Source: Eledone cirrhosa (Eukaryota). Taken from it: a stretch of DNA of 64,000 nt. Made by a program: the position numbers and the translations under genes. Of this stretch, positions 2,290-56,506 are shown piece by piece (the stretch's first letter is position 1; each line of letters starts with the position of its first letter). The notes under the pieces are model-generated. The model did not search any database, was not told the DNA's origin, and worked only from the letters and a program-made list of their open reading frames with translations. The stretch is taken from contig OZ024747.1 of assembly GCA_964016885.1 (NCBI GenBank), forward strand, positions 15,314,001 to 15,378,000, read 5' to 3'.

Positions 2290-2401
2290 ATCCCGCCGAG
2301 GTTAACTTTGCCTTTCATCCTTACGGGGTCGATAAAATAAAGTACCAGTAATACACTGGGTAATTGCTGGCCTTGTGCCTAACGTAGAAACAATTATTGT
2401 T
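2290..2401 (+). mobile_element. 5'-truncated SINE copy, inverted relative to the preceding copy
   Basis: ATCCCGCCGAGGTTAACTTTGCC...GGCCTTGTGCCTAACGTAGAAACAATTATT; forms a foldback with 2161-2268. Confidence 0.9.
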
Positions 2402-2419
2402 ATTATTATTGCTGCAAAG

Positions 2420-3662
2420 GCTCGGCACCTGGAGAGGCAGGTCCATGCCGTCCAACAGCGTCGTCGGACGCTGGACGGAGGGACCGGTTAAATTGCTAGT
2501 TGTCTGGTTCGGTCCGGTCCTCCAGACGGACAAAAACTGGCACGAGGTGACGAGCAGGGTGGCTTCTCTCACCCAGAAATGGGCGGAGAGGAAGCTATCC
2601 CTGAAAGGTCGAGCGGAGGTGGCTAACGCGTACATCGCGTCTGTCATCTGCTACCGCCTGACCGTCGTACCTTGTCCTAAGCCTCGCCTGACTGCGCTGG
2701 AGCGTTTGCTCTTTCGCTTTTTGTGGAAGGGACGTGCTCCGATGGTCAGGCGGTCCATCTGTTGTCAACACCCGCTACGTGGAGGGCTGGGCATGCCGTG
2801 GCTGATGATGCGCAGGCACGCGCTCAGGCTACGACATCTCCACCTCTTCCACGACGGTGATCAGGTGTGGTCGCCGTTTGCTAGGCGCGTATTTCCCCAG
2901 CTCGTTTCCTTGCCGGAGCTGCAGTCCTGGGTCAAGCGAAGACCGAGAGGGAGCGCCTGGAGACTGGAATGTCTTCAGGCGCTCACAGCCCTCGACCAAT
3001 CGGGCAATGTGATCGGTGGAAACTCCACCTCGGCGTTCTATAGAGGATTAGTGGAGGGGAAGAGCGACGACGTACTTGGGGAAACTCTAGGCGTCGACGA
3101 AAATCAACTAGCCAATCTCTTCGGAAGAACTTTCGGGCCAGGGCCTATGGACAACTTCCAGAAATCTCTGGCCTGGCAGTGCTACCGAGGAGCCTTGCCA
3201 GTTCGGGATAAACTCTACAGGCATGGAGGTGCCGTCAGCCGGGCATGTCCGAGATGCGCGCAGGGCGATGAAACCGTCCTGCACGCACTCGTCCAGTGTC
3301 CGAAAATTGCTGACTTGTGGGTTTATGTCGAACACCTGCTGTCGCGTTTAGGACGGATCCGGCTATCATCTGAGTCCATCGTGAGGATTGCCCCGCCCTC
3401 CTCCTTTAGCCGGGAAGGGCAGGCAGTTTTTATCTGCCTGGTGGCCATGGCGAAAGAGATAGTATGGTGGACACGTTTGAAAGGGCTGAAGACGAGCACT
3501 TACCTCTTCGGTGATGCTCTGATTGACTTTTTCAAATTTCATTTGAAAAGGAAAATCAGAGTAGAGAGGGAAGTGCTCTCTTCCCAGCATTTTGTTGAAA
3601 GATGGGTGAGAGAAGCAAGAATGGCCCGAGTGAATGGGCCTACTCTGAGTATATATCTGTAA
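2420..3662 (+). pseudogene. Uninterrupted C-terminal part of Tx1 ORF2 (post-RT region and zf-RVT-type CCHC)
   Basis: ORF 2397-3662 contains LSLKGRAEVAN, GGLGMP and CPRCAQGDETVLHALVQC. The first residues of the ORF come from flanking DNA. Confidence 0.85.
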
Positions 3663-3912
3663 ACTAAAGGTGGAAAACTGGGAGAGGGCACTTGCCTTGG
3701 TGGTCAGGGTCATTGTGGCTTTTTACTGGGCTTTCTCCACAAATGTCCCTCCGAAGTCTCCCCCCTATTGGGGAATTTTTCATTGTTATTTTTTGTTACA
3801 TCCTCTGTTTTTGTTTTTTACACGCAGAAATGCCCATTTGTACCGTCCTGCATTGTCCTGCACTGTCCTTAATGTCTACTTTATGTAAACCCTTGTGGTT
3901 AATAAAGAAATC
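2420..3912 (+). mobile_element. 5'-truncated Tx1/L1-clade LINE (copy A, divergent subfamily) with 18-bp TSD
   Basis: ATTATTATTGCTGCAAAG occurs at 2402-2419 and 3913-3930. The ORF2 C-terminus is homologous to 39437-41287. The 3' end is ACCCTTGTGGTTAATAAAGAAATC. Confidence 0.92.
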
Positions 3913-5624
3913 ATTATTATTGCTGCAAAGCAATAATAATAACAATAATAACAATACGACAGGTAAAAACAAAATGTGTGTAATGGAGGCAATCCGGCTA
4001 GAAATATGTTTTATGTAAAATAATTAATTGTTGGGAAGATAAAAAGTTCAGCTAATAAGAACACGTCCAGTTATGAACAAGATAAAACTTTGAAGGAGAT
4101 AATAAACATTAGACAGGAATTATATGATTCAATTCTGTTTGAAAGTTTCGAGTAGTCTAATGACTACTCGAAATATTTATCATCTTAGTTATTTTGCAAA
4201 TCATGGCGCCCGGGAATTCTTTGCTTTCAATATTTTTCCGTAAAAATGTTTGTTTCTCTGCTAGAACTCGCGTTTGTGCACGATTTTCATTTGAATATGT
4301 CTTCCACTAGGTTTGCCCTTGGTACACTTTTGTAGTAGAATGGGTAGAGTTGTTGGATTTAATATCTTAAATTATTTAGTTTTTTTCTTTTTCTCAGATA
4401 CTCTGCCATCAAACCTATTCAGTGTTAATTTTGATACTCATTGTACCTGAATCGAAAGCAAAAATACCATTTAAGCATTTCGATTGATGCAGTTGCACAA
4501 TACTCACTCCTGTAATCATAATTGCTTCATATCGGTACTTGTAGCTTAAAAAGAGTAAGGGTGTCCAGATACAGCTGAAAAATGAAGAAGTTTGGGGAAT
4601 GGGCATAATCGTGTGGATTGCCATCGAACCTGGGAGGTTAATTGTTTAAAGTAACTCGATGGCATTAGGAATAAGGAGATGAAGAAAGCTGAGTACGTAT
4701 GTAGAAAGTGGTATAGGTGAAAGCTTATTGAGTGTTTAACACATCATACTGCAAACATATTCAAATACTGGGTAAAAGGAAAACAATAATAGCCAGCAAA
4801 GAAGTGATATAGAGAAACATTATCCTTGGTTGTGGAAAACACTCGTTACTTTACTAGATGTGTATTTATAATTGTGGATTAAGAGATATGCTAAAATATA
4901 AATCTCTGGGACACCATTGCTAATTGGTTAGCTATGTCACTGACATTTTATTTAATGTTTTCAATAACAAAATAGTAAACAGCTAAATTTTGTTAGATAG
5001 TTTTAATTTGCGACTAAATATTTTTTCGTATAAAGTCAAGTTTTTCTGCTATATCTGCTATTTCACTGAAGTGTATAATAATGATGATAGTTTCTGAAGC
5101 ACATTTATCACAAATCATGCATATACATTGAAACATTGTATTAGGCAATCAAATACTGATATTAGATAATGCGTTATTATGATGAAATTAATTAGAAATT
5201 CCATGAAAATCGAAATATGGCTTCCGGCTGTGTTATCGGGACTGAGATATAAGATTTCATATTTGCGATTTACAATATAAGAAACCGTTTAATTTCGTGC
5301 GTTTGGCATAGAATAAAACAGTGTGACGAGGAATATCTTTAACGATAGAACATTTACGAGAATACAAATATCTGGCTTCTGATATTGACAAAACAACAAA
5401 TGAATCAATATTAAGCAGTACGTTGCATGATAAAGAAATATATATATTTATATATAAAGTATCATATATATGTACTTGTTATTTTGTTGCTTTTTTGTCA
5501 CAATGTGTGTATTTGCTTTTCTTTTGGGGGAGTTTTTTCTCTGTGATAAATAAGACGCCGTCATCTCACGTGCAATGACGTCATATTCAGGTTGAAAATA
5601 CAGTATATATAAAAAAATATTAAT

Positions 5625-10917: not shown

Positions 10918-11168
10918 TCTCATCATTATCTATAAAAGCGGTGAATTGGCAGTATCGAGGGCGGTGAATTGGCAGTATCGCCAGAGGGTCGGACATGCTT
11001 TCCAGCATAGTTACGTCCCTTTACGATCTGAGTTCAAATCCGGCCGAGGTTAAATTTGCCTTTCATCCTTACGGGGTCGATAAAATAAAGTACCAGTAAT
11101 ATACTGATTAATTGTTGGCCTTGTGCCTAACATAGAAACAATTATCTATAAAAGGCAGATTGTTGTTG

Positions 11169-12267: not shown

Positions 12268-14057
12268 CATCATCATCATCATTCGTCGACTACTGTCGAG
12301 ATGATGGATCTCACTCTCCTGCCCCAGAATTCCCTGTCCCCCATCGCTGCCCCCAGGTCCTGTCTACTGATCCCGTATCCCTAGAGATAACGTCAGGGAA
12401 TGACAGCTTCCTACTCCTAGTCAGGCTGGAGTCAGGGTTCCAGAGCAAGAGAGCGGATATGATTTCATTGCTGGCACGGTGACAGTGGCCAGCAAATTGA
12501 GCTCTCCGGGATTTTAGAAGGGCAGAGGCTCGAGGGAGTTTGCCATACAATTTAGACAAAAGGTGGGATGTCGTTTCCAGGATAGGTTTTGCACTCTTAT
12601 TAAGAGGCGGGTATATGTGCGATCCAATCTCCTCTCAAGTTGTGATGTTAGTGTCCAAGTTTCGGATCCATAAAGTAATATGGGCTTAATGGTTGCTTGG
12701 AATATTTCCAGTTTTAGCTTGTTGGTAAGTTGAGATGTCCATATGGCGTGCATGTCATTGCACGCTGACCATGCCATACCCTTCCTGGTTAGAAAATCTT
12801 TTTTGGAGGAGGAGATATATGAGCCAAGATACTTGTAATCTTCCACCTGCTTAAGGGTGGTACCATTAAGGGTTCTGATGGGGTAGTTTGGGCTGTTTGC
12901 GCATCTGTTCACATACTCAGTCTTGGATTCGTTGAGGTACAGTCCAACACAGTTGGACGCTTGCTCTAATGACTTCAAAAGACTCTCAGCATTTTCCAGT
13001 GACCGACTGATCAATGCGATGTCGTCAGCAAAGTTGGTGTTGGTCAAGTATTGTTCTGGGTAGCGTGAGCTTCTCCTAGGCTGTAGTTGGTATCCCCTAT
13101 CCTGAATCCCATCCACAGACATGCACAAAACATAATCCACAACAATGATAAATAGATACGGTGCAAGGGTATCGCCCTGTAAAATTCCAGCGAGGATTGA
13201 GAAAGGTGGTGTTTCCCCATCTGGGGTCAGGACAGTTGATTTGGTATCTGTATACATTACACGTATGGCCGCGATGATTTTATCAGGAATCCCATAGAGT
13301 TGTAGAATTTCAAACATCCCCGACCTGTCAACTGAGTCGAAGGCTTTTGAAAAATCAACAAAGATGAGTGCAATGTCTAGATTGCTGTTTTGGGACTCCT
13401 TTATAAGTCGGCGAAGGCAGAGAATCTGGCTAAGTGTTGATCTACCTCTCCTAAATCCATTCTGGTTGTTACGAAGGATTGGCTCAAGAAATGGGATTAA
13501 GCGATTACGAAGAAGCTTGTTGTATATTTTTGCAGCAATTGCCATGAGAGAAATTCCTCTATAGTTGGTGGCTAAAGAAAGATCTCCTTTTTGGGGCATG
13601 GGGATAATTTGAGCTGCATGCCAGACGCTAGGTGGTTTATTGGTCTCGAAAGTATGGTTACATAAGTTGAGCAAAAGGATGTGGAAATGCTCATCCTTCC
13701 AAATCAGGGTAGGTATATTATCCGGCCCAAAGGCTTTTGAGGCTTTGAGCTGTTTGGTGGCTTCTTTGAGATCAGGCATGGTGAAAGGAGAGGTGTTGAT
13801 TCCTAAAGGCTCTGAAACCTGAACGGATGGCAGTTGATAGTTATCAGGGAGTCTGGCCTTTTTCCCTAGAAGGTTTTTAAAATGAGCACACCAATTTTCA
13901 AGACGTTTTTTGGCAGAGCCTCCTTTGATTCTAACTGCAGAGTTTGAGATTTTGCCTGAAAGATCTTTGACAACCTTCCAAGCAAGATGATGGTGTTTGC
14001 TGATGTGATGTTGCGATAGCTGATCAATCCTACTTGATATATAGTCGGCTTCAGCAT
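12268..14057 (-). mobile_element. 5'-truncated RTE-like LINE (RT domain to 3' end) with (TGA)n tail
   Basis: ORFs 12514-14094 and 12311-12559 contain NYRGISL, QNGFRRGRS, FVDFSKAFDSV, GILQGDTLAP, FADD, KYLG and LLYGSETW, with one frameshift near 12560. Possible TSD TACATTT at 12261-12267 and 14058-14064. Confidence 0.92.
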
Positions 14058-15147
14058 TACATTTACTGGGAAGGGAAATGTTTGTCAGATACAAGAATGT
14101 TAATATTTACATTGAACTAAAGGGCTTCTGACAACTATTTCCGTCTAAATTAGAAGCTTCATCAATATCGTTAGAGCACTCATTCAGAATTTGAGAGGTA
14201 TAGAATGAGATACTTCGCTGCATCTGCAGCCAATACTTTTCGTCTATAGTGGTATTTTACTCATTCTCCTGAGCTATTGTTTATAGCAAACAACTGAAGC
14301 TACATTTACTTTCTGCGTTTAGGATTCTTACATATAAGAATTTCAAATCTAACCAAACGCAACGACACTTCACATTTACAATGTTGTTTACACACAGAAC
14401 AGTTTATTAAGCTTCTAAGTTAGACGAGATTAGTAACCAGAGAACGTTTAGCTCAATGACTAGAGCACTCAGTCGGAATTCGAGTGGTATGAAGTTAGCT
14501 AGCCAGATTTTCCTTCTATAGGTTTACTCTACCCGGCTTTAAAAGCGATTGTTTATAACAATCGACTGTGGCTAAAGTTACGCCTGCGTATGGGATTATA
14601 ATATCTAACAATTTCAAATCTAAGGAAAAGCTTCGACACTTATTCTCCCCCCTCTCATTCTCTCTCTCTTGGGGAAAGGAATTTATTCCTTTGTTCAAAA
14701 TTTGAATTTCGACCGCCAAAAACCGGGGCTTACCTCCCTTTGGGAAAACCACGTGACCGGCAGCAGTCTTACTGCTATAATTGACACCCGGCAGCGGCAT
14801 ACAGCGGAAACCTGTTGAGAAAGTGAACCCTCTGTTCGATCTTCCAAAACCAGTAACTTGCATACCCCGAAAGTGGATTTTGTTGATTTCGATTTCACAG
14901 AAACCTACCGGAGCTATTGCTTAATATCGATGCGATGGTCCAGGTTTGTCAAATTATCCTGAGTCGGTTTTCTCGTTGCTTTGGTCCTTGCGGCTGGCTT
15001 ACCGGTCGCAATCTTCAATTTGCCAAGCTGTCTAAATGTAATGTTATTACTATAAGGTAAAATACCTTATTGAGTGCTTAGCTGCACATTCTGATTTCAT
15101 TCGTTAGCTTAGCTGCAGCCAGAGCTTCGATTTTGCTGAACTTCCAT

Positions 15148-17086: not shown

Positions 17087-17537
17087 GCTACGTTAACCGA
17101 TATAATTGTTTGGGAATTCACAATGTTCGTCACAAATATGAAAATACATTCTTGACAGGTGCCATATGTCCGAGCACGGAAGAGCCGAACAATTATTATA
17201 GTACATTACTGGTACTTTATTTTATCGACTTGGAAGACGGTAATACACAACTACGTTAAACACAACCACAAGGATATGGTCCGAACACGGAAGATCCGAA
17301 CTCCCACTGTCTTCGCCCCTATCTCTCTCGCCTTCCCCATCTTTCTGTATATAGAGCAAATGGGGTCCCACGTGCTGGCCGCCCCACAGCCCCGACGGAT
17401 AGAATGGAGAAGGCGTTTCGCCGGTGGATGGTAAGGGAGATGCGCTGGAAGAGCTTCGAAATTTGTTGAAGTTTAAGGAATTAGTATTTAATTTCACTTT
17501 TTAAATTCGCATTTGGAATTATTATTTTTGCCTTGTA

Positions 17538-17768
17538 GGGCGGTGTATTGGCAGTATCGGTAGAGGGTCGGACGCCATGCTAGGGCGGTGTATTGGCAGT
17601 ATCGGTAGAGGGTCGGACGCCATGCTTTCCAGCATAGTTACGTCCCTTTACGATCTGAGTTCAAATCCCGCCGAGGTTGACTTTGCCTTTCATCCTTACG
17701 GGGTCGATCAAATAAAGTACCAGTAATGCACTGGGTACTTGCTGGCCTTGTGCCTAAAAGTAGAAACA
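17538..17768 (+). mobile_element. Full-length SINE with 17-bp TSD and 45-bp duplicated head
   Basis: TSD ATTATTTTTGCCTTGTA at 17521-17537 and 17769-17785; TAGGGCGGTG...GACGCCATGC is repeated in tandem. Confidence 0.95.
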
Positions 17769-18261
17769 ATTATTTTTGCCTTGTATCTTAAAAGCGACAA
17801 GTCATCGTTGAAAAATTCAGTTTTCAGCAGGCGCCCTGGAGTATTTGTACAGCGGCGTTGACAATCAACGAGTGGGGTGTATTATTTACAGTAAAAGTCG
17901 TTGCTTACAGCGGTCTATTGTTGCTACCGGATGATACATATTTAGAAAGAGGTGGCTTATACCATTCAAGAGTTAAGCCTGTTGGTCAGCATCACAGAAT
18001 TTGTTCGTATCAACAGGACACGAAACAGCTGCGTTTTCCGATATTCTATCAACTTAGCCATCTCTGTAGTGTTGAAACATAAATGCATACAAATTTAGCA
18101 TACGTCCATTTTAATTTCCTTGGCATTCAGATAATAAATCTCATTCTTCCCGTTTATATTTGATTCATATTTGATCAATGACTTCTATTTTTTATATGTA
18201 TATATATATATATAAATATTTATATATATATATTCATATGTATATAAGTATGTATGCATAA

Positions 18262-19838: not shown

Positions 19839-19975
19839 CAAACGCCTAATCATTAGATCACGCACCCCTCTACAGTATGTATATATATATATATATATTA
19901 TATATATATATATATATATTGGGCTTTGAAAGCTCAGATAACTCTTTGTTACGTGTGTGAACATGAATAAATAAT

Positions 19976-20161
19976 TGTCTCTACTTTAGGCACAATGGCA
20001 GCAGTTACCCAGTGCATTACTGGTACTTTATTTTATCGACCCCCGTAAGGATGAAAGGCAAAGTCAACCTCGGCGGGATTTGAACTCAGATCGTAAAGGG
20101 ACGTAATTATGCTGGAAAGCATGGCGTCCGATCTTCCACCGATACTGCCAATCTACCGCCC
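19976..20161 (-). mobile_element. Full-length SINE with 19-bp TSD
   Basis: GTGAACATGAATAAATAAT at 19957-19975 and 20162-20180. Confidence 0.95.
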
Positions 20162-20326
20162 GTGAACATGAATAAATAATATAATGTTTCAGCTCTCTTC
20201 CCGATTAAGCACTCTCTTCGTTGCTCCTTTTTTTACACATACGAATATTGGTACATTTTCATGTACACAGACACACACACACATGCACACACACACACAC
20301 ACAAACACGCACGCACACACACACAG

Positions 20327-21314: not shown

Positions 21315-21316
<2 letters not shown>

Positions 21317-22675
21317 AAGGCGGGTAAAATTCCCGAGATCCATGGACGAGTTCTCTCCAGCGGTCCCTGTCCCTCATTATCGCTGCCATGCCCTGCGTCT
21401 CCAGCAGACCAGTGTCTGACCTTAGGGCATCAACATACGTCAACCTTGGTCTTCCTCTTCCAGTGTGTCCATGTAGGGACTCCCAAAGGAGCACTGAGTG
21501 CAGTGTCAACTCTGGATTTCGGTGAGCATGTCCAGCTAACCTCAGTCTCCTCTGTGTTACTTTTGAGCTGACATTTGAGAGGCTCCCATACAGCTCTGAG
21601 TTTTTCATCCTCAGTGTATACTGATTAATGTTCAGAGCCATCCTCAGCATTCTCGTGTAGCACACATCCACCATCTGAGTGAGTTTCTTGGTCAGTGTCC
21701 AAGTCTCAGACCCATACAGCAGCACAGACTCCACTACAGCAATGAAGAGGCGGATTTTCAGGACTCTACGAAGGTCCGACTTCCACACCCATCTCAAGCT
21801 GTGGCACGCCGCCCAGGCCTTGCCCTTCCTCTCAACCACATCATCTTCCGTATTCCCAATCTTTGCTCCCAAATACAAGAAGTCCTCAACCAATTCCAGT
21901 GGCTTCCCGCCTACATTAGTGATCCCCTCTGGCTTCTCAACATTCTCTACCAGATATTGTGTTTTAGTCTCATTCATTCTCAGCCCCACACTCATCGACA
22001 CAGTCTCAACCTCCCGCATCAAATCCTCTGCCTCCTTCACTGTATTTGTCACCAAAACTATGTCGTCGGCAAATTCAGCATCCGATACCTTTTTCGCCCT
22101 AAATCTCCTGCTCTGAGCCGGTGCTACAGTAAAGCCAGAGTCCTGGTGTTTCTCCAGTACAAGGCGCATACAATAGTCCACTACGATGATAAAAAGGTAG
22201 GGAGCCAATGTATCTCCCTGGAACACTCCAGCCAGTATCTCAAAGAACTCTGTCATCCCATCAGGTGTAATGACTTGGGCTTTGGTGTTGGTGTAGAGCA
22301 GTGATATCAGGTCCACTATCTTCTTGGGGATTCCATAAGCCTGTAAGATCTTCATCAGGCAGTAACGGTCCACAGAATCAAAGGCCCTCCTAAAGTCAAT
22401 GAAAACCATGACCGCAGGAAGGCACTTTGCTCTAGCTCCCTCTAATATCCTCCTCAGCATCAGGATGTGACTGGTGGTTGATCTACCCTCTCTGAAGCCG
22501 TTCTGGTTGTCCCTGAGCTTCTTCTCCATCTCAGGCTGGATCCTTTTAAGAATCATCCTGTTGAGGGTCTTTGCCACAAGTGACGTCAGTGAGATCCCCC
22601 GGTAGTTGTTGGTGTTAGAGAGATCTTCCTTCTTTGGTACTGGGACGATGTTACTGATCCTCCACTGATTCGGGG

Positions 22676-22677
<2 letters not shown>
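21315..22677 (-). mobile_element. 5'-truncated RTE-like LINE inserted in (TA)n, with an uninterrupted ~450-aa RT C-terminal ORF
   Basis: NYRGISL, QNGFREGRS, FIDFRRAFDSV, GVFQGDTLAP, FADD, LYLG, LLYGSETW and RRLRLAGH; the stop codon abuts (AT)n; (TA)n on both sides. Confidence 0.93.
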
Positions 22678-23090
<413 letters not shown>

Positions 23091-24435: not shown

Positions 24436-27092
24436 AAGAGGCACTTAGGAGTGGCAACGTAGGAAGCGTGCTAGCGACGAGCACGGCCTTGGACCAGTTG
24501 TTCGACGCAAAGCATGAAGGCTGCGTTGTCAGAGGCAAAATACGTGCTCTGGGAAACGAGGGAGCCAAAGCTGTTAGCTGGGCCCGAGTGACGGAGGCGA
24601 AAAGTGGCAACAACTCCATGATTCGGTCTTTGAAGGACCAAGACGGACGCGTGATACGTGAGCCGAAGCAGATGTGCGCGGCCTTTCAGCGGCACTTTGC
24701 TCAAATGTTGGGGCAGGGCGATGCGCCGGGAGGGGCTATGGATTTCGGTCCATACCTCGACGGCTTACCGCGAATCTCGGACAGCAAGGCGAAGTTCTGC
24801 GAAAGGCCGATTTCGGCCGCTGTTGTAGGGGACGCTCTGAGCCAATGCGGCAAACGCAAATCTCCAGGTCTCGACGGTCTACCACACGAATTTTACGTAG
24901 CAATGCGGGACTTGTTCTCCGTTCTCCTGGAAGCGGTCTACTGCAACTGGCAGCAGAACGTGAGAATTCACAGTTCTGTGACCAGGAGCGTAGTCACGTT
25001 AGTCAGGAAGGACGAGAATAAGATGAATGACATAGGCAACTTCCGGCCCATAACTCTGCTAAACACAGAGTTCCAGATTTTGGCCAAGGTGTTGGCAAAG
25101 AGGCTGGCGCTTGTCGTCGAAAACCTGGTGGGAGAAGCGCAAACATGCGCAATCCCGACCAGGTCCATACACGACAGCCTCCATCTCGGTGAGGCCCTGA
25201 TCAACTTGGATCAGTCTCAGGCTTTCGATAGGGTTGACCATCGTTACCTGGATGCGGTGCTCGAGGCGGCAGGCTTCGGACCCGTGTTTTTGGGCTGGAT
25301 TGCTGCAATGCACAGCAGCAACATCTGCTCACGGGTCAAGGTGAACGGCTATCTCTCGGAGCCGTTCCATATCACGCGATCCATCCGACAGGGATGCACT
25401 CTCTCCTCCCTTCTGTACGTACTGGCTCTCGAGCCACTACTGCGGAAGTTGGAGCTATTGCAGGGCATCCCTTTGGAACCGGGACTGCTAAAAGCGGCGT
25501 CGGCCTATGCCGACGACATGACAGTAATGGTGTCGAGCATCTCGCAAATCGGGGACGGCAGCACCTTACTGGAGGAATACAAAAGGTTCACAGGAGCGAA
25601 GCTGAACCGGGACAAATCCGTCGGTTTGCAACTTGGAACGCGGAGAGGCAAACCGATGGCTTCCGATGGCGTCGTCGGACGCTGGACGGAAGGACCGGTA
25701 AAGCTGCATGGGGTCTGATTTGGTCCGGACATCCAGGTGGAGAAAAACTGGAACGAGGTGGTGACCAAGGTGTTTGCGCTCACCCAGAAGTGGGCCGAGT
25801 GCAAACTATCCTTGAAAGCTCGAGCGGAGGTGGCGAACACTTTTATAGCGTCCGTCATCTACTACAGCTTGACCGTTGTGCCTTGTCCAGCCAAAACGCT
25901 CACCAAAATGGAGCGCGCGCTCTTCCAATTCCTTTGGAAGAGGTGGGCTCCTTTGGTGAGAAGGTCCATCTGCTGCCAACAACCTTCAAACGGAGGGCTG
26001 GGGATGCGCAAAGACACGCTCAGGTTGCGGCACCTCCACGTATTCCTCACCGGACAACCGGTGCGGGCCCAGTTTGTGTGGCGAGCCTTCCCACAAATCG
26101 TCTCGCTGACCGAGCTGTAGTCCTGGGTCAAGCAAAGACCGAGGAAAATGGGCGACTGGCACATCGAATGTGCTCAGGCGCTCACAGTCCTCTGGCAAAC
26201 GGATCCGGCGATCAGTGGAGACTCCACTTCGACATTCTATAGAGAGTTGGTCTGTAGCAAGTGCGACGACGTGCTCGGAGAAATTCTGGGCGTAGAGGAG
26301 GACGAACTGGCTAGTCTCTTCAGTAGGACCTTCCACCTGGGACCATGGGACAACTTCCAGAAGTCCCTGGCCTGGCAGTGCTACCGAGGATCTCTACCAG
26401 TTTGAGACAATCTCTCTACAGACACGGGCGCCCGGGTAGGGACCCTTCGAAAAAGATCTGTCCGAGATGCGTGCGCGACGAGGAAACCGTCGCGCACGTA
26501 TTTGTACACTTCCCGGGCGTTACCGACCGGTGGGGCTATCTAGAACGACTATTGTCGCGGGTGGTACCAATCCAGTTGACCACCGAGTCCATTGTCATGA
26601 TCAAACCGCCACCCTCCTTCAAAAACGAGGGAGAGGCGGTTTTCCTATGTGTTATGGCTATGGTGAAAGAGGTTATATGGTGGACGAGGTTAAAATGGCT
26701 GAGGTCAGACACCTTTCTCTCCGGCGAGCAATTGATTCGTTTTTTCAAATATCATTTTGGAAGAAGAATCAGGATGGAGACAGAGGTGCTGTACCCCAGC
26801 AAATTTTATAAAAGGTGGGTGAATGTGGCAAAGATGGCCCGAGTGGTTGGGCATTCTCACTATATAAACCTGTAGGTTGAGGAAAAAGAGTAAGAGATGA
26901 GGGGAGTACTCACTCTTGGTGCTCCTGGAGATGAGGGTTGTACATTTTTTCGGCGTGTGTAACGCCTCGCCCCTATTGGGGATTTCAATTGTATTTGTTA
27001 TTTTATTAATAGTTTTATTTTCATATACCTGTATGTAAACTCCCCATTTGTATTTGTCTCCTTCTTTTGTGCCCTTGTGGCTAATAAACAAA
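24436..27092 (+). mobile_element. 5'-truncated, decayed Tx1-clade LINE (copy B) within (TATC)n
   Basis: ORF pieces 24468-25718, 25737-26120, 26148-26405 and 26345-26875 (KSPGLDG, FRPITLLN, AFDRV, YADD). It has premature stops and 42-bp and 15-bp in-frame deletions relative to copy E. (TATC)n lies at 24370-24430 and after 27093. Confidence 0.95.
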
Positions 27093-27247
27093 TTTATCTA
27101 TCTATCTATCATCTATTTCTATCCTCCTCTCTCTCTCCTTCTCTCTCTCTCTCTATATATATAATTTAAATAACAGATTAAAGTTTAAGCAACGAATCGC
27201 TGCTTTCACCCTTAACGGATTTTAGTCTTCACATTTATTATTATTAC

Positions 27248-33319: not shown

Positions 33320-33611
33320 ATATATATATACCTATATATATATATTTATCTACCTATATTTATATTTATCTACCTATATATATATTTATCTACCTATATA
33401 TATATATATATTTATTTATTTATTTATCTACCTATGTATCTATCTCTCTATCTAACCTCTTTATATATCAATATACACGTATCCCTCCCTTTCTCACTCT
33501 TTCTCTCCTTATCCCCCCCATCCTTTCTCTATCGATATAACTTCTCCATATATCTATATACATATATACCTCCATTTCCCTCTGTGTCACTTCTTAACTA
33601 TCTATCTATCT

Positions 33612-35577
33612 ACCTCATGCGATACATCATAGAGAGAGTGGGTTGTAAACCAGCCTTCGGTGGGGATCTGGTCAATTTAGATCAGTCTAAGGCATTCGAT
33701 AGGGTTGACCATCGATACCTGGAGCAATTCTCAAGGCGGCCGGTTTAGGTCCCGTTTTCAGAGGCTGGATCAAGGCGATGCACACCAGCATCTGCTCAAG
33801 GGTCAATGTGAATGGCTACCTATCGGAGCCGTTTGCAATCACGCGTTCCATCCGACAGGGACGCCCCTTCTCCTCCACTCTGTACGTATTGTTTCTAGAG
33901 CCACTACTGCGGAAGTTGAAGTTTTTGAAGGGCATCCTTTAGAACCGGGACTGCGAAAAGCGGCGTCGGCTTATGCCGACGACATGACGGTAATGGTGTC
34001 GAAAACCTCGGAAATAAGGTAATCGGCAACCTACTACAGGAATACAAAAGGTTCACACGAGCCAAACTGAATCCGGACAAGGCTGTCGGTTTGAAACTCG
34101 GAACATGGAGAGACAAACCGATACCGTCCGACAGAGCCGTCGGATGCAGGAAGGAAGGACTGGTGAAATTGCTCGGGGTCTGGTTCGGTCCAGACCTCTA
34201 GGTAGAGAAAAGCGGGAACGAGGTCATGGCCAAGGTATTTGCATGTGGGCATAGTGCAAACTGTCTTTGAAAGGTCGAGCGGAGGTGGCGAACACTTTCA
34301 TAGCGTCCGTCATCTACTAGCGCTTGACTGTCGTGCCTTATCCCCGTGAATACCTCGCTAAGATGGAACGCATTCTCTTCCAGTTCCTGTGGAAGAAGCA
34401 GGCTCCACTGGTAAGGAGATCCGTCTGCTGTCAACACCCTTCCAACGGAGGGCTGGGCATGCCCTGGCTAATGATGCGCAAACATGCGCTGAGGCTACGG
34501 CATCTCCAGGTATTCCTCACCGACGAACCGGTGTGAGCACCGTTTGTGAGACAGGCCTTCCCAAAACTTGTCTCGCTGACGGAGCTGCAGTCCTGGGTGA
34601 AACGAAGACCGAAGAAGATGGGCGCCTGGCATATTGAATGTGCCCAGGCACTCACAGTCCTCTGTCAAGCAGGCACAGCAATCAGTGGAGACTCCACTTC
34701 GACATTCTATAGAGGGTTAGTACTTCACAAGTGCGACGACGTGCTCGGGGAGACTGTAGGCGTCGAAGACGACGAGCTCACCAGTCTGTTCGGTAGGACT
34801 TTCCGCCCGGGACCTATGGACAACTTCCAGAGGTTCCTGGCCTGGCAGTGCTACCGAGGATCTCTACCCGTTCGAGATAAAATCTACAGGTACGGACGCC
34901 CCGGCAGGGACCCTTCCAAGAGGACGTGTCCAAGATACGAGCAGGACATTGAAACCGTCTTGCAAGCAATTGTACACTGTCCTGGCGTAACCGACCTGTG
35001 GAACTATGCAGAACAACTGCTGTCGCGTATGGGACTAATCCAGTTGACTGCCCAGTCCATAGTAAGGATCAAACCGCCAGCCTCTTTCAAAAACGAAAGA
35101 GAGGCGGTGTTCCTTTGTACAGTGGCTATGGTGAAAGAGGTTATATGGCGGACGAGATTGAGAGGACTGAGGACAGATGCCTTTCTTTCCGGACAACAAT
35201 TGATTCTCTTCTTTAAGTATCTCTTTAGAAAGAGAATCAGAGTGGATAGAGAGGCACTGCACCCAGTAAATTTACTGAAAGGTGGGTGTATGAAGCGAAA
35301 ATGCCCGAGTGATTGGGCCTTCTCTGTTTATAAGCCTGTAAGGTTAAAGAAGAGAGCAAAAAGAAAAAGGGAACACTTGCACAACACGCTCCTGAAGTTG
35401 AGGGTTGTTCGATTGACGGGGTATTAAACAACCCATTTGTAGTGCCCCCCCCCCCCCCCTATTGGGGATTTCGATTGTTATAATTGTTTGTTTCAATATT
35501 TTTACACGACTGTATGTAAAATCTCCGGCATGTGTCTTCGTCCCCTTTTCTTGTGCGCCCTTGTGGCAAATAAAGAA

Positions 35578-35578
<1 letters not shown>
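33612..35578 (+). mobile_element. 5'-truncated, decayed Tx1-clade LINE (copy D)
   Basis: RYIIERVGCKP, DQSKAFDRVDH, YADD and ORF 34546-35427; many frameshifts. Preceded by TATCTATCTATCT and followed by (TATC)n. Confidence 0.93.

Positions 35579-35672
<94 letters not shown>
35579..35672. repeat. (TATC)n microsatellite separating two head-to-tail Tx1 copies
   Basis: Read directly. Confidence 0.97.
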
Positions 35673-35673
<1 letters not shown>

Positions 35674-35896
35674 CACTATCAGACGCGTGTCACTTCGCGG
35701 AGAAGTTTCCGTTAATTTATGTAAGAAAAAAACGTGAGTTTTTAGTTAAATTTTATATCATTGTGTAACTTGACCACCCCTCTGGACCTTCAGCTGGTGG
35801 GTCAACTCATTTTCGCCCCTTCAGGGGCGGAATATCCATTTAAAAAATTTTTCTCCATCGAATCTTGGAAAAATATTGTAAAATTTTGATTACGTT

Positions 35897-37813
35897 ATGA
35901 ACGCTGCGTCCAACGATAATGGTGGTGGAGAGGCGGTAAGACTACAAAGCTCGCAGTCAACAACGTCTTCTTCACTAGATACTATAGAGATGGAAAGACA
36001 AAATGAAAATAAAAAAACGAATTCACATCCAAACAACACAAATGACACCAAACAGTTCAATGACAACAAAAATAACAGCAAAACCAATAATGATGATAAA
36101 AGCAACAATGATAACAACAACAAAGAAAAAAATAAAGACAACGCCAATAACACCAGCATCAAAGACAACAACAACACCAAGGAAAATACAGATGATACCA
36201 ACATCGGTGACAACAAGAATAACAACAACAATAACAACAATAATGACAACACCACCAATACGGATTCCACAAAGAAACCAAAAATCTCCTTTGCGGAGAA
36301 AGTTCAAAAGAAAGAACAATTGATATATCTCGACATAACAAATGCTGAACACCTTTTAAAGGACGCTAAGAGATATGTCACCTTCGAAAAAAATGGTGCT
36401 TTCAGCATCAATTCTCCGGTAGAAATTCGCAAGGAAACTGCTCTCAAAACGATAGTTTTTAGGACAGTTTCCAATTCTACCCGAAAACCAGTCCAATTGT
36501 CACAGAAAGATATTGAACTGGTTTTCAAAGATTCAATGAATGATATTGCATTCATTCAAAGAAGCAAACTTTTTGGGAGTATTTCGGTACTCATGAAGGA
36601 TCAATTGACGGCCCAAAATTACTCTGTGTCGTCAATTGTATCCAACCTGTACACCTTTTTCCCTACATACATGGGAAAAAGGACACAAAAGATCAGAATC
36701 ACAAGTGTCACACCAAAGGTGAACATATGGTGGATACTGTGCGGCTTCATCAATTTTGATGAAGACAGAATACTGTCAGTAGGAAAGTCCCCCAGAGATG
36801 TATTCAATGGGACTAGCATTGAAGTTCTGGTGCAACTGAGCCCAGAGCGAATAGCTATGATCCCACAGCGTGTACTCCTGGACGGACTCACCTACATAAA
36901 CCTTTCGGTTGAGGGTAGGCGGCCTTCATGTTACCATTGCTTTAGCAGGGGTCACCTGAGGGCTTCCTGTCCTAAACTAATGAACAAAAAAAAGGCTCTT
37001 CTGCCGACACCCATCAAAACAACACGACCACCAACACCACCACAACAACAACAACACCAACACACAAAAATAACCACAACAAACACAGTCCCACCCAACC
37101 CCACTCCACCTAAAACCACTGCAAAATCACATACAGACACAACAGCTCCCCAAGACATACCCCTTCCCAATCACACAGACGATACAACAGATGAGGCTAT
37201 CTCGCCATCACCCAGTGAAGACGAGGGAGAACCCCATCGCTCGAAAAGAAAGAAAAGACATCACAAAAACAAAAAACCAGCAAACACTACCACAAACATA
37301 CAACCACCAACACAAACAACAAAAATATCACAAACAAAACCCCCACCTCCTGAAAACAAAATACCTACAACAAAACGAAAGCACACACAAGAACTACAGA
37401 CAAAAACAAACACAACACAAGAAAATTACACTTACACTTACATAAACACTGAAAACAAAACACTAATGGAGACCATCACGAACGACCCTTCGGTTTTCAC
37501 CGAAGGGAAAACTTTCGCCCACTCTATAAAAAATAGCAAAAAACTGAACCTAAAACTGATTAGGGTCCCTATACAAACTTATAGGTCCCTAAAAGAAACA
37601 TTTGAGAAGGATGTGGGGAATTCCTGCGTGAAACCACTCAACCGCGTCCTTCTCAAATGCCTCCCCACCCCAGACACCCCCATCCCACCAGACCCCACCC
37701 CACCAAACATCTGCGTCCCCACCCCGCCGGAAACCACCACCCATCCAGACAGCCCCTCCAACACCCCCATGGAGATCGTGCGGCCTGGTCCCCAGGAGGC
37801 GAAGGGTGAGTGA
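35897..37813 (+). CDS. Tx1 ORF1 (gag-like nucleic-acid-binding protein, 638 aa)
   Basis: Intact ORF upstream of ORF2. It has a CCHC knuckle CYHCFSRGHLRASC preceded by VEGRRPS, an SFAEKV motif, an Asn-rich N-terminus and a Pro/Thr/Lys-rich C-terminus. Confidence 0.88.
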   Translation: MNAASNDNGGGEAVRLQSSQSTTSSSLDTIEMERQNENKKTNSHPNNTNDTKQFNDNKNNSKTNNDDKSNNDNNNKEKNKDNANNTSIKDNNNTKENTDDTNIGDNKNNNNNNNNNDNTTNTDSTKKPKISFAEKVQKKEQLIYLDITNAEHLLKDAKRYVTFEKNGAFSINSPVEIRKETALKTIVFRTVSNSTRKPVQLSQKDIELVFKDSMNDIAFIQRSKLFGSISVLMKDQLTAQNYSVSSIVSNLYTFFPTYMGKRTQKIRITSVTPKVNIWWILCGFINFDEDRILSVGKSPRDVFNGTSIEVLVQLSPERIAMIPQRVLLDGLTYINLSVEGRRPSCYHCFSRGHLRASCPKLMNKKKALLPTPIKTTRPPTPPQQQQHQHTKITTTNTVPPNPTPPKTTAKSHTDTTAPQDIPLPNHTDDTTDEAISPSPSEDEGEPHRSKRKKRHHKNKKPANTTTNIQPPTQTTKISQTKPPPPENKIPTTKRKHTQELQTKTNTTQENYTYTYINTENKTLMETITNDPSVFTEGKTFAHSIKNSKKLNLKLIRVPIQTYRSLKETFEKDVGNSCVKPLNRVLLKCLPTPDTPIPPDPTPPNICVPTPPETTTHPDSPSNTPMEIVRPGPQEAKGE

Positions 37814-37846
37814 TCTCTTTTCCTCTTTTAACTTTTCAGCACCAAC

Positions 37847-40800
37847 ATGGCCAATATAAGAGTTCGATGTGTGAACGTACGCTGCCTGGGGATGCCCTGG
37901 AAACAGGGCAAACTCTTAAACGACCTCAAGTCGCACAGTTTGGATGTGGTAGCCATTTGCGGGTCCAGGATCCACGGCGAGCGACAGCTGGCCCCCATCT
38001 TCGATGACTTTGAGATCTACGCATCTCTCTGTCAACCGGGGGATGGGGGCGGAGTTGCCGTTTTGCTGCGGAAACACCTGGGCCTCGTAACACAGACGGT
38101 ACATCTGGACCCGGAGGGTCGACTGGTGGTCCTAGACGTTGACGGTAGTGAAGGTGGTGAAGCGTTCAGGCTGGTGGCCGCATATGCCCCATCCGGGACA
38201 CCGCGGCCAGACTTCTTCAAACGTCTAGAGACTTTTCTGGGAACGTCCCGCTCCTTGCTTTTAGTGGGGGACTGGAATGGAATCCTATATGCACGTTGGG
38301 ACTATGTGGGAGCATGTCCCGATAAAGGGGGGGGTGTAACAGCCTCAAACAGTTAATCGACCGATTTGACCTGGCCGATAGATATCGACTAGATTTTCCG
38401 ACTGCGCCACTGTGGACGTGGAGTAATCGTAGCGGAACATCTAGATCGTACCTAGATAGGGTTCTAGTTAGAAATAAGGATAGGGACATGTTAAGCTGTC
38501 CACAAATGTTCATGGTTGCCTATTCAGATCACAAACTAGTGACCGGCATGGCCAACCTTGATAGAACCCATAGACAAGGACCCGGCTACTGGAAGCTGAA
38601 CTTGTCGTTACCGACAAGCAAAGCCTACAGTAGACGGATTAGCACTTTAGTTAAACAGCACTTGACAGGGGCCATTGTCAACAACAGATGGTGGTACTCT
38701 CTCAAGAGGGCAGTTAGATTAGACTCGATAGTTTTTAGTAAAGAATTAGCGTTAGATAGAAATAGAACCGAGAAGGAACTGTTAGATAAAGTAGAAGAGG
38801 CAATTAGAAGTGGCAACGTAGCCAGCGTGCTAGCAACGAGAACGGCCTTGGACCAGTTCTTCGACGCAAAGCACGAAGGCTGGGTTGTCAGAAGCAAAAT
38901 ACGTGCTCTGGGAAACGAGGGAGCCAAAGCTGTTAGCTGGGCCCGAGTGACGGAGGCAAAAAGTGGCAATAAGTCCACGATTCGGTCTTTGGAGGACCAA
39001 AACGGACGCGTGAACGTGAGCCGAAGCAGATGTGTGCGACTTTTCAGCGGCACTTTGCTCGGCTGTTCGGGGGGAGCGGCGCGCCGGGAGAGGCTATGGA
39101 TTTCGGTCCATACCTCGACGGCCTACCGCGACTCTCGGACAGCGAGGCGAAGTTCTGCGAAAAGCCGATTTCAGCCACTGAGATAGGGGACGCGCTGAGC
39201 CAATGCGGCAAACGCAAATCTCCAGGTCTCGACGGTCTACCCTACGAATTTTACGTAGCAATGCCGGACTTATTCTCCGGTCTCCTGGAAGCGGTCTGCT
39301 GCAACTGGCAACAGAACGGGAGATTTCCCAGTTCTGTGACCGGGGGCGTGGTCACACTAATCAGGAAGGACGAGAATAGGGGGATGACATAGGCAACTTC
39401 CGGCCCATAACTCTGCTAAACACAGAGTTACAGATTTTGGCCAAGGTGTTGGCAAAGAGGCTGGCGCTTGTCGTCGAGAACCTGGTGGGAGAAGCGCAGA
39501 CATGCGCGATCCCGACCAGGTCCATACACGACAACCTCCACCTCATACGATACATCATAGAGAGGGTAGGGTGTAAACCCGGCTTCGGTGGGGCCCTGAT
39601 CAACTTGGATCAGTCTAAGGCTTTCGATAGGGTTGACCATCGTTACCTGGATGCGGTGCTCGAGGCGGCAGGCTTCGGACCCGTGTTCAGGGGCTGGATT
39701 GCTGCAATGCACAACAGCAACATCTGCTCAAGGGTCAAGGTGAACGGTTACCTCTCGGAGCCGTTCCATATTACGCGATCCATTCGACAGGGATGCCCTC
39801 TCTCCTCCCTTCTGTACGTACTGACTCTCGAGCCATTACTGCTGAAGCTGGAGCTATTGCAGGGCATCCCTCTGGAACCGGGACTGCGGAAAGCGCCGTC
39901 GGCCTACGCCGACGACGTGACAGTAATGGTGTCGAGCGCCTCGCAAATCGAGGAAGTCGGCACCTTACTAAAGGAATACGAAAGTCTCACAGGAGCGAAG
40001 CTGAACCGGGACAAGTCCATCGGTTTGCAACTCGGATCGTGGAGAGGCAGACCGATGCCTTCCGATGGCGTCGTCGGACGCTGGACGGAAGGACCGGTAA
40101 AGCTGCTCGGGGTTTGGTTTGGTCCGGACCTCCAGGGGGAGCAGAACTGGAACGAAGTGACGGCGAAGGTGTTTGCACTCACCCAGAAGTGGGCCGAGTG
40201 CAAACTATCCTTGAAAGCTCGAGCGGAGGTGGCGAACACTTTTATAGCGTCCGCCATCTACTACCGCTTGACCGTCGTGCCTTGTCCAGCCAAAACGCCC
40301 GCCAAAATGGAGCGCGCGCTCTTCCGATTCCTTTGGAAGAGGCGGGCTCCTTTGGTGAGAAGATCCATCTGCTGCCAACACCCTTCTAACGGAGGGCTGG
40401 GGATGCCGTGGTTGACGATGCGCAAACACGCGCTCAGGCTGCGGCATCTCTACGTATCCCTCACCGGACAACCGGTGTGGCCCCCGTTCGTGAGGCGAGC
40501 CTTCCCACGACTCGTCTCGTTGACCGAACTGCAATCCTGGGTCAAGCAAAGACCGAGGAAAATGTGCGACTGGCACATCGAATGTGCTCAGGCGCTCACA
40601 GCCCTCTGGCAGGCGGACCCGGCGATCAGTGGAGACTCCACTTCGTCATTCTATAGAGGGTTAGTCCGCAGCAAGTGCGACGACGCGCTCGGTGAAACTC
40701 TAGGCGTAGAGGAAGATGAACTGGCCAGTCTGTTCGGTAGGACCTTCCGCCCGGGACCGATGGACAACTTCCAAAAGTCCCTGGCCTGGCAGTGCTGCCG

Positions 40801-41287
40801 AGGAGCTCTACCAGTTCGAGACAAGCTCTACAGACATGTGCGCCCGGGCAGGGACTCTGCAAAAAAGATCTGTCCGAGGTGCGTGCGAGACGAAGAAACC
40901 GTCGCGCACGCATTCATACACTTCCCGGGCGTCACTGACCTGTGGGGCTATGTAGAACGACTATTGTCGCGGGCGGGACCAGTCCAGTTGACCACCGAGT
41001 CCATTGTCATTATCAAACCACCACCCTCCTTCAAAAACGAAGGAGAGGCGGTTTTCCTTTGTGTGATAGCTATGGCGAAAGAGGTTGTATGGTGGACAAG
41101 GTTGAAAGGGCTGAGGTCAGACACCTTTCTCTCCGGCCAACAACTGATTCTTTTTTTCAAATACCACTTTGGAAGAAGAATCAGGATGGAGAGAGAGGTG
41201 CTGTACCCCAGCAAGTTTTATGAAAGGTGGGTGAAAGTGGCGAGAATGGCCCGAGTGAATGGGCCTTCTCTCTATATCAGCCTGTAG
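37847..41287 (+). pseudogene. Tx1 ORF2 (APE endonuclease, reverse transcriptase, C-terminal Zn motif), split by three frameshifts
   Basis: APE motifs NVR, YAP, GDWN, SYLDRV and SDH; GPGYWKLN; RT motifs KSPGLDG, DQSKAFDRV, QGCPLS and YADD. Frameshifts near 38330, 39010 and 39380. Confidence 0.92.
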
Positions 41288-41536
41288 GCTGAGGAAAAGG
41301 AGGAGGAGAGGAAGGGAGTACAAACTCTTCGTACTCTTGGAGATGAGGGTTGCACATTTTTTTCGGGGGTATGTGTTACCCATATAAACTGTCTCCCTCT
41401 ATTGGGGAAAATCGACTAACTTTTTAAATTCCATCTGTGATAACATTTTACACGTTTTTATTGTATGTAAACTTCCCCCTTTGTATTTGTCCCCTTCTTT
41501 TGTGCACCTGTGGCTAATAAAGAAATATATCTATCC

Positions 41537-48691: not shown

Positions 48692-49228
48692 AATGAAAAA
48701 ACGGAGTTAAAGACTTGCGTTGATCCCATGTAATTTAATGAACTCAAGGAATAAGTACCGGCCTTTTCATAATAGAGTATATATAGAAGGAAACACAAAA
48801 AGGGGTATATTTTCAATTACAAGAGGTAGAGAACGACTAGAATGAAGAATATAAAGTCTATATACTCTATATACTGTATCATATATATATATATATATAT
48901 ATATAATAGAGTATATATATATTAACATTTTACTCTCCTTCGTTTTTAACATTAACATTATTCTTTAATAACATCAAATGTTGTGTACCCTTCACCGACT
49001 TGACCTCTTTTCAGCCCCAAAGTATTCTTTTCATTCAAAGTATTCTTTCCATTCAAAACATAAGTCTGCATTCCTCTACCCCTAAATTAAATTTCTCCTA
49101 CTACTATTCTATCAACTTGACCTCTTACTACTTTTCTATTGGTCAATTCAAAACCGGTTCCCAAACAGACCTAATATATTAAATCTTTGTTGTTTTTTTT
49201 TCAATAAACAAATCTCATTATTTCTGAA

Positions 49229-49406
49229 TTGGCAGTATCGGTAGAGGGTCGGACGCCATGCTTTGACGCATAGAGTTACGGCCCTTGCTATTCTGAGTTC
49301 AAATCCCGCCGAGGTTAACTTTGCCTTTCATCCTTACGGGGTCGATGACATAAAGTACCAATAATGCACTGGGTAATTTGCTGGACTTGTGCCAAAAGAA
49401 GAAACA
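49229..49406 (+). mobile_element. SINE with 12-bp TSD inserted into a hammerhead stem I/core
   Basis: ATTATTTCTGAA at 49217-49228 and 49407-49418. Confidence 0.92.
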
Positions 49407-49600
49407 ATTATTTCTGAAGACATCATATATAGGTGAAGGTATGTATATTTCCTCTGATAGTTTGTAATATTTTTACATAGATCTATATGATATACATACC
49501 AACACACATTTATATCCTAGAAACGATCTTAAAATGATGAATTTTTTAATATAAGGAACCTGTTCTTTGTTATTATTCATTGTTTTTATTAATTTAATAT
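49407..49600 (+). mobile_element. Penelope-like 3' end with degenerate long-stem-II hammerhead, ending in (TA)n
   Basis: (TC)ATTATTT CTGAAGA ...~100 nt with GGTATGTATAT/ATATACATACC... GAAAC GATC TTA AAATGATGA; T-rich tail into (TA)n. Confidence 0.55.
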
Positions 49601-55662: not shown

Positions 55663-55934
55663 GGAATATAGGTGAGGAAGATGAAAGACCAAGGGAGCAC
55701 CCCTTCTCTGTGCTCCTGAGGAGAAGGGTTGCACACTTTTTTCGGGGGTGTGTGCGACCCCCCAAGGCGCCTCCTCTCTATTGAGGATTTTGTTATAAAT
55801 TTTATTTTTTGTTATATCTTATTTTATTTTTATATTTTGTTATTGCCTCCTCCTTATTGAGGACCCCTTTTTGTGTAAACTCCCCCCATTGTACTTGTCC
55901 CACTTTTGATGCCCTAGTGGCAAATAAAAGAAAC
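55663..55934 (+). mobile_element. Tx1 3'-UTR fragment (copy F) within (TATC)n
   Basis: GTGCTCCTGAGGAGAAGGGTTGCACACTTTTTTCGGGG..TGTAAACTCCCC..GCCCTAGTGGCAAATAAAAGAAAC; (TATC)n on both sides. Confidence 0.85.
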
Positions 55935-55935
55935 A

Positions 55936-56000
<65 letters not shown>

Positions 56001-56004
56001 CTAT

Positions 56005-56258
56005 CTTTCTTTGTATATAAATCTGTTGGTTGAAGAAGAGAGCGAAAAGAAGAAAGGACCGCTTGCATGCCCCCGGAGTTGAAGGTTGTTCTATCTACGC
56101 GGTATAAAACAATCGATTTGTAACGACTACCACCCTATTGGGGATTTTGATTGTTATATTTTCATGTTAAAACCTTTTTAAGACGATTGTATGTAAAATA
56201 CCCGGCATATGTCTTTGTATTGCCCCATTTCTTGTGCGCCCTTGTGGCAAATAATAAA
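56005..56258 (+). mobile_element. Tx1 3'-end fragment (copy G, D-like) within (TATC)n
   Basis: Homologous to 35318-35578; ends GCCCTTGTGGCAAATAATAAAA then TCTATATATCTATCT. Confidence 0.85.
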
Positions 56259-56506
56259 ATCTATATATCTATCTAGTGATCTACTAAATTAACTATCACT
56301 AACTAGGTCCAAGTGACCGAATAAAGAATAAACCCTTGAAGCCAGTGCCAAAACCTGGCCGCAGTCCACTAAGGTGGAAAACAAAAAATAAACAAGAAAG
56401 TAAACCCCCAAATAAATAAATGCATATATGTGCACACATATGCACCCACATGTACACATGGTTACATATATATATTTTAAATATATATATATATATATAT
56501 ATATAC

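Follow-up and report, generated by a model that had tools for sequence, protein, structure and literature searches.

Introduction

Pairs of a short interspersed element (SINE) and a long interspersed element (LINE) with a common 3′ stem-loop have often been described where the LINE is L2, CR1, RTE or Nimb, but rarely in the L1 group, and mammalian L1 reads poly(A). Here we analyse a candidate pair from the genome of the octopus Eledone cirrhosa, consisting of an abundant SINE and a Tx1-like LINE, one copy of which (copy A) lies in the tail of a SINE within a 64,000-nt window of contig OZ024747.1 (assembly GCA_964016885.1, positions 15,314,001 to 15,378,000 of the forward strand). A sequence-only reading of this window had proposed that the SINE is mobilised by an ATTAT-targeting Tx1 subfamily that recognises a CUUGU hairpin. 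All positions given below are those of the whole window, and element ends were counted genome-wide as exact patterns over 3.0 Gb.

In crocodilians, SINEU has been assigned to a Tx1 group, Tx1-Mar, by shared target, polarity and age (PMC4494074). The Eledone pair resembles SINEU/Tx1-Mar in its shared target and polarity and in tandem re-insertion at one site, but SINEU, in the part of that report compared here, has small nuclear RNA heads, a poly(A) tail and no LINE resembling the 3′ half of SINEU-1, whereas the Eledone SINE has a putative tRNA-like head, lacks poly(A), shares a structured 3′ end with the LINE and uses a microsatellite-type target. In zebrafish L2, stems can be swapped and loops cannot (PMC4176376). 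The pair described here has a 3′ stem-loop, as do ZfL2-1/ZfL2-2 and UnaL2/UnaSINE, for which the stem sequence is exchangeable and the loop specific; those are, however, L2-clade systems with experimental proof, whereas the Eledone elements are L1-group/Tx1-like, with a predicted stem of 3–4 bp and target-specific insertion. Stringent pairs of the L1 clade have been described in maize, sorghum and the green alga Chlamydomonas, with three such SINEs in one survey (PMC3472496, PMC3747384). They likewise combine an L1-group LINE and a SINE with a common hairpin 3′ end and, as may be the case here, compensatory stem changes, but they are from plants and algae and share ~50–80 nt, and the algal pair ends in poly(A).

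Microsatellite-specific Tx1 families include Kibi at (TC)n, Koshi at (TTC)n and crocodilian families at (TTCC)n and (TTTC)n; the compared parts of these reports name no SINE partner for them and do not name (ATCT)n as a Tx1 target (PMC4494074, PMC3812793). The elements described here are microsatellite-specific in the same way, with (ATT)n and (ATCT)n as targets. The partners given for bivalve SINEs are CR1, CR1-Zenon, L2 and Nimb, Tx1 not being mentioned in the part compared (PMC11481361), and the annotation of Octopus vulgaris, as far as compared, reports active L1-Tx1 and SINE families and names no partners (PMC13282606). The literature searched, which comprised neither Repbase nor subscription journals nor supplements, yielded neither a shared SINE-Tx1 3′ hairpin nor the partner of any octopus SINE; two sources with a possible bearing on novelty are the SINE-LINE table supplementing PMC3472496 and the PMC13282606 repeat library. 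The Eledone pair would be a variant of the known stringent SINE-LINE partnership, the one Tx1 case found, SINEU, being based on a shared target only.

Results

The SINE and the Tx1-like LINEs share a predicted 3′ hairpin and a spacer

Copy A terminates with ACC-CTTGT-GGT TAATAA AGAAA TC (3889–3912), and the SINE directly upstream of it with GGC-CTTGT-GCC TAACGT AGAAA CA (2369–2392). In hairpin motif, AGAAA and 13-nt spacing, both ends agree with the description in the sequence-only reading, and the stems differ by two compensatory changes within 3 bp, with pairing kept. In 600 kb of random genome, searched on both strands, CTTGT followed by 9 nt and AGAAA was found 65 times, compared with 2.45 in block shuffles, and a pairable stem was present in 50 of the 65 matches, compared with 0.1. 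We aligned the last 24 nt of two SINE ends, anchored at the junction and shifted by no more than 3, with those of five Tx1 ends and eight Dong/R4 or RTE ends. The SINE matched the Tx1 ends at 14–17 of 24 positions, a score that 0–132 of 20,000 shuffles reached, and the Dong/R4 and RTE ends at 8–11, which at least 3,457 of 20,000 shuffles reached. Thus, a 3′ sequence in register with Tx1 ends is shared as in stringent pairs, although it is shorter than the 35–61 bp of the bivalve pairs (PMC11481361). The ends of copies B and C, which belong to the (ATCT)n-targeting type, scored 16–17 and copy A 14–16, so that sequence alone does not single out copy A; the stem of the SINE is nearer to that of the GCC/GGC subfamilies than to that of copy A.

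RNAalifold, applied to 13 family representatives, returned the 3-bp hairpin as the only structure. Of its stem cells, 37 of 39 pair (94.9%, compared with 5–56% in slid controls), and two of the three pairs have changed on both sides. This covariation is suggestive, though not strong, and would point to a conserved hairpin. When single sequences were folded, the stem had a probability of 0.74–1.0 in seven of eight ends. Longer lower stems, in which an upstream pyrimidine tract pairs with AAAGAAA or the end folds back onto the junction, appeared in such single-sequence folds but were absent from the alignment consensus and were set aside.

Copy A belongs to a young two-ORF LINE family

Copy A has 98% amino-acid identity to an intact 1204-aa frame in L045 (L numbers denote fetched loci) and contains a zf-RVT domain. 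Full-length members of its subfamily, Tx1-A, measure 6.0 kb and have two open reading frames (ORFs), ~700 and 1204 aa long; head-to-tail arrays of 6-kb copies with open frames and (ATT)n joints occur at L031–L038 (G000:C1 55.4–57.1 Mb). Pfam assigns Exo_endo_phos, RVT_1 and zf-RVT to ORF2, and the closest solved protein is LINE-1 ORF2p (E 1e-51; R2, E 1e-21). The family thus has the two ORFs, apurinic/apyrimidinic endonuclease, reverse transcriptase and C-terminal zinc domain of an L1-group non-long-terminal-repeat retrotransposon. It also shows the target-specific insertion, often into microsatellites or tandem arrays, of the Tx1 clade. A CCHC zinc knuckle in ORF1 is a further Tx1-clade feature; the ORF1 translation shows a C-x2-C-x4-H-x4-C motif, and a zinc-knuckle match in Pfam is absent. 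Protein searches returned no named Tx1 protein or other named relative. By its two-ORF layout, target specificity and ORF1 CCHC motif the family appears Tx1-like within the L1 group, and copy A is a member of this young family.

The full-length Tx1-A copies at L047 and L048 are preceded by (ATT)n at their 5′ junction even though (CTT)n or another sequence follows on the 3′ side; the ATT repeats may therefore be part of the 5′ end of the Tx1-A transcript.

SINE and LINE insert at the same junction

Taking exact matches to the last 33 nt of copy A as Tx1-A ends, we counted 3,358 in the genome, 3,191 of which (95%) are followed by ATTAT; among the first 30 loci, ATT is next in all 30 and ATTAT in 27. 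The ATTAT preference expected of copy-A-type insertions was therefore found. The 27-nt end of the SINE has 134,138 exact matches, and ATTAT is next in 110,142 of them, while ATCTATCT was next at only 1 SINE end when a slightly shorter pattern was used. LINE copies are mostly in long (ATT)n tracts and SINEs in short sites.

The 18-bp duplication read around copy A is present and begins with ATTAT, and those read at five SINEs (10925, 17521, 19957, 49217 and 63130) begin with ATTAT and are exact over the lengths given in Table 1. An exact duplication of at least 8 bp was detected in 70 of 138 3′-complete SINEs. After 12 tandem cases had been set aside, the remaining 58 duplications had a median length of 13.5 bp and 51 began with ATTAT. 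ATTAT was thus already in the target prior to insertion. The base at −1 was C in 29, T in 26, A in 3 and G in 0 (C or T in 55), so that the SINE duplications start at Y/ATTAT, in a register and polarity equal to those of the LINE. Thirty Tx1-A loci selected for a short ATT run were read by eye; the 5′ junction was visible in 15, and 7 of these have a 9–18-bp duplication starting with ATTAT after C or T. When longer stretches were fetched for 20 of these loci, three full-length copies with (ATT)n on their flanks, a copy with a possible 8-bp duplication and four truncated copies lacking any were gained. At L173, one 16-bp duplication occurs in three copies around a Tx1-A fragment that is followed by a SINE, and at L151 three copies of one 14-bp duplication surround a Tx1-A fragment and a SINE. 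At both loci, Tx1-A and the SINE thus shared one nick and had an equal second-strand distance, in either order of insertion. The association between the SINE and Tx1 is thus real and well supported, with motif, spacing, target, polarity and duplication size shared.

Tx1-A insertions of just 25–38 nt, approximately the hairpin plus spacer, were seen at L151, L154, L155 and L175, three of them with duplications. When the element is removed, the target of copy A (2393–2419 joined to 3913–3950) is an inverted repeat, perfect over 20 bp, around a 6-nt loop. In the region 1390–2392, five minus-strand SINEs follow one another head to tail and stand back to back with the truncated plus-strand SINE in which copy A lies.

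Tx1 subfamilies share the hairpin and differ in target

The Tx1 copies of the window other than copy A occupy (ATCT)n sites and not ATTAT (Table 1). The GCC-CTTGT-GGC ends that had been attributed to them are present in copies B and C, but loop and AGAAA vary, with ACAAA in B and the loops CCTGT in D and CTAGT in E. In a tally of 101 ends from fetched loci, partly chosen for ATT, ATTAT is next in 45 of 49 ends of subfamily A, 6 of 7 of A2 and 2 of 2 of A3, and TATCT in 11 of 16 ends of B, 9 of 10 of C, 2 of 2 of C2 and 2 of 2 of E. The distance from stem to junction is 13 nt in nearly all Tx1 ends and 14 nt in A3 and one E copy. We built a tree of 36 ORF2 C-terminal rows (63 rows less 32 near-identical A rows, with five outside proteins added), in which two rows carry a label from the downstream A end and a protein from the upstream A3 copy. 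A branch supported at 91/89, under the tool's strong mark, separates the 17 ATT-type rows from all others. Diverged ATT-type copies exist at L065 and L106. The (ATCT)n-targeting lineage comprises several subfamilies, represented in the window by copies B, C and D.

The hairpin is common to all Tx1 subfamilies here, the (ATCT)n-targeting ones included. A hairpin pattern that excluded the stem of A retrieved 9,891 further Tx1-type ends, compared with 11 in the control, and about 78 of the first 100 listed, counted by eye, have a GCC/GGC stem with unrelated upstream sequence. Given this prevalence, GCC/GGC is likely the ancestral stem, from which ACC/GGT of A and GGC/GCC of the SINE would each be one compensatory step removed. 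Because the hairpin occurs in all subfamilies and the SINE stem is closer to GCC/GGC, the partner is likely the whole ATT lineage (A, A2, A3 and older members), the subfamily of copy A being one current member and not the sole one. As regards a SINE-Tx1 partnership and an ATT-targeting Tx1 lineage, the earlier proposal finds genome-wide support. The subfamily of copy A, however, is not distinguished by its hairpin, ATCT types matching the SINE as well or better.

Structure and age of the SINE

The element is ~190 nt long, non-coding and of high copy number, with target-site duplications and 5′ truncation, as is typical of SINEs. A- and B-box-like motifs were recognised by eye; ARAGORN found no tRNA in it, and Rfam gave no tRNA match. 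An immediate terminator for RNA polymerase III is not general, TTTT lying within 8 nt in only 7 of 85 SINE ends. The SINE may resemble the Deu/Nin-domain superfamily, which has a conserved central domain. A longer form ends with AGAAATC, the same as Tx1-A, in 4 of 21 copies and with AGAAACC in 5 of 21.

Identity to the majority has a median of 93% (10th–90th percentile 86–97%) in 45 copies of a random set, 6 of which have a neighbour at least 98% identical at another locus. The LINE samples, picked by exact motifs and hence biased young, have median identities of 98.7% for A (34 copies), 98.4% for A2 (6), 93.4% for B (12) and 96.2% for C (7). The comparison of targets, duplications and ages that the sequence-only reading had called for thus yielded a shared Y/ATTAT and a shared duplication size, but most SINEs look older than the young-biased sample of the copy-A subfamily, and most SINE copies may have been made by older ATT-type subfamilies.

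Other LINE clades

A better match in another LINE clade had been named as a refuting result, and none of the eight sampled rival ends beats Tx1. Elements that we take, from a protein motif, to be of the Dong/R4 type were rejected as partners: their ends read into AATAAT, the opposite polarity of the ATT repeat, have no hairpin and match at chance level. RTE families were rejected as well, having no hairpin and ends that read into (TGA)n, (TA)n or GAA. The window contains two minus-strand RTE-like LINE copies (12514–14106 and 21315–22763), which end in (GAT)n and (TA)n. Tx1-A copies often meet Dong/R4-type elements tail to tail within a single (ATT)n/(AAT)n tract (L004, L021, L022, L026, L044 and L103), two LINE clades thus occupying one microsatellite with opposite polarity, and an unclassified repeat ending in an (AAT)n tract (L101, L103, L041 and L044) is a frequent landing site for both. 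Dong elements have been described as targeting TAA (PMC3812793).

Table 1. Elements and element parts located in the 64,000-nt window
Feature	Position	Strand	Detail
5′-truncated SINE hosting copy A in its ATT tail	2290–2392	+	hairpin GGC-CTTGT-GCC at 2369–2379
Copy A, 18-bp target-site duplication, 5′ copy	2402–2419	+	begins ATTAT
Copy A, Tx1-like LINE, 5′-truncated	2420–3912	+	ORF2 C-terminal 412 aa at 2424–3659, 3′ untranslated region beyond
Copy A, 3′ hairpin ACC-CTTGT-GGT	3889–3899	+	stem pair probabilities 0.86–0.90
Copy A, 13-nt spacer from hairpin to junction	3900–3912	+	AATAAA at 3901–3906, plus AGAAA
Copy A, 18-bp target-site duplication, 3′ copy	3913–3930	+	
SINE	10925–11154	+	14-bp duplication beginning ATTAT
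SINE	17521–17785	+	17-bp duplication beginning ATTAT
SINE	19957–20180	-	19-bp duplication beginning ATTAT
Tx1 copy B, (ATCT)n-targeting	24438–27094	+	hairpin GCC-CTTGT-GGC at 27071–27081
Tx1 copy C, (ATCT)n-targeting	33605–35580	+	hairpin GCC-CTTGT-GGC at 35557–35567
Tx1 copy D, near full length, (ATCT)n-targeting	35882–41527	+	variant hairpin, CCTGT loop, ~41504
SINE	49217–49418	+	12-bp duplication beginning ATTAT
Two short Tx1 3′ fragments in (ATCT)n	55700–56262	+	hairpins at 55911 and 56238
SINE	63129–63336	-	10-bp duplication beginning ATTAT

Discussion

The sequence comparisons suggest that the SINE is probably copied by the ORF2 protein of the (ATT)n-targeting Tx1-like lineage, which would bind the hairpin. 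That this lineage is the partner seems to us very probable, and a requirement for the hairpin reasonably so. The process would start from the intact 6.0-kb two-ORF LINE copies, nearly all of which insert before ATTAT. RNA polymerase III would transcribe the SINE from its A/B-box-like motifs, and ORF2 would bind the small C-G-closed CUUGU hairpin, as its conservation and the two compensatory changes suggest, reading loop and shape rather than stem sequence if zebrafish L2 is a guide. From the duplication boundaries, the endonuclease would nick the strand opposite Y/ATTAT, reverse transcription would start 13 nt 3′ of the stem, and the duplication would come from a second nick ~10–20 bp away. 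Since the SINE is missing from (ATCT)n although ATCT-type LINEs carry the hairpin, a second key is needed to pick the partner. Most likely, and most simply, the read-through AUUAU(U) that ends the RNA would pair with the primer at the nicked target; the sequence of stem or spacer, or a difference in timing, could also supply this filter.

Several findings weigh against this proposal. ATTATTAT is next in only 30,106 of the 134,138 SINE ends, ATTATT then non-A at only 141 Tx1-A ends, and the first 30 Tx1-A loci hold a median of ~11 ATT units, the SINE mode being 2. No clear duplication was seen in 68 of the 138 SINEs, and in 8 of the 15 short-ATT Tx1-A copies it was missing or ambiguous. Most SINE copies predate subfamilies A and A2, as sampled with a bias to young LINEs. 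The stem has only 3–4 bp (−2 to −6.6 kcal/mol locally), loses to a competing fold in one SINE variant (pair probability 0), and covaries through two events in related sequences, 41 of 500 shuffles reaching two double-changed pairs. No Tx1 family with the GGC/GCC stem of the SINE plus AATAAA was found, all 5 matches being SINE mutants. Finally, only eight rival LINE ends, found in ~0.66 Mb, were compared, a set without CR1, L2 and Hero ends. The composition of this set, together with the abundance of Dong/R4 elements on the microsatellite that the SINE uses, speaks for mobilisation by Dong/R4, RTE or another LINE clade, the likeness to Tx1 being coincidence; given the opposite polarity of the Dong ends, the different tracts entered by the RTE ends, and the lack of a hairpin and chance-level match in all eight, we consider this very improbable. 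Age and site length bear on which Tx1 subfamily was involved. An older, now degraded one with a better-matching end and a short Y/ATTAT target could have made most SINEs, the subfamily of copy A sharing only ancestry and sites, as the median identity of 93% against 98.4–98.7% for A and A2, the shorter SINE sites and the diverged copies at L065 and L106 would allow. This appears somewhat unlikely to us, since 6 of 45 SINEs have a close neighbour at another locus, the same-nick triplications involve subfamily A, and the A samples, chosen by exact match, are biased young.

The role of the hairpin can be questioned even if the ATT lineage is the partner: it could be an inherited relic or a 3′-processing signal beside AATAAA, RNAs being chosen only by pairing of AUUAU with the nicked target (relaxed recognition). 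The stem is weak, the same hairpin occurs in ATCT-type LINEs whose sites the SINE avoids, and in the LINEs it always lies just upstream of AATAAA. The SINE, however, has lost AATAAA yet retains the loop, the closing pair and the 13-nt spacing, its middle stem pair has changed on both sides, and the 25–38-nt insertions still start just upstream of the hairpin, as the search pattern demanded. We regard a relic or processing signal as unlikely and favour recruitment of ORF2 through the hairpin. As a tentative generalisation, which may well prove too broad, animal Tx1 would combine stringent hairpin recognition with a second key: a CUUGU hairpin common to the lineage would recruit ORF2 and set the start 13 nt downstream, and the read-through RNA tail would have to pair with the nicked microsatellite. 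Sister lineages would share the hairpin and differ in target, and the dominant SINE would be limited to the lineage that matches its own tail.

If confirmed, the pair would represent a stringent-type L1-group element in an animal and would identify what drives a SINE present in more than 130,000 copies. The intact young LINEs, with the same 11-nt hairpin and two different targets, would make a natural test set for the division of work between RNA recognition and target pairing, and for how mammalian L1 came to read poly(A).

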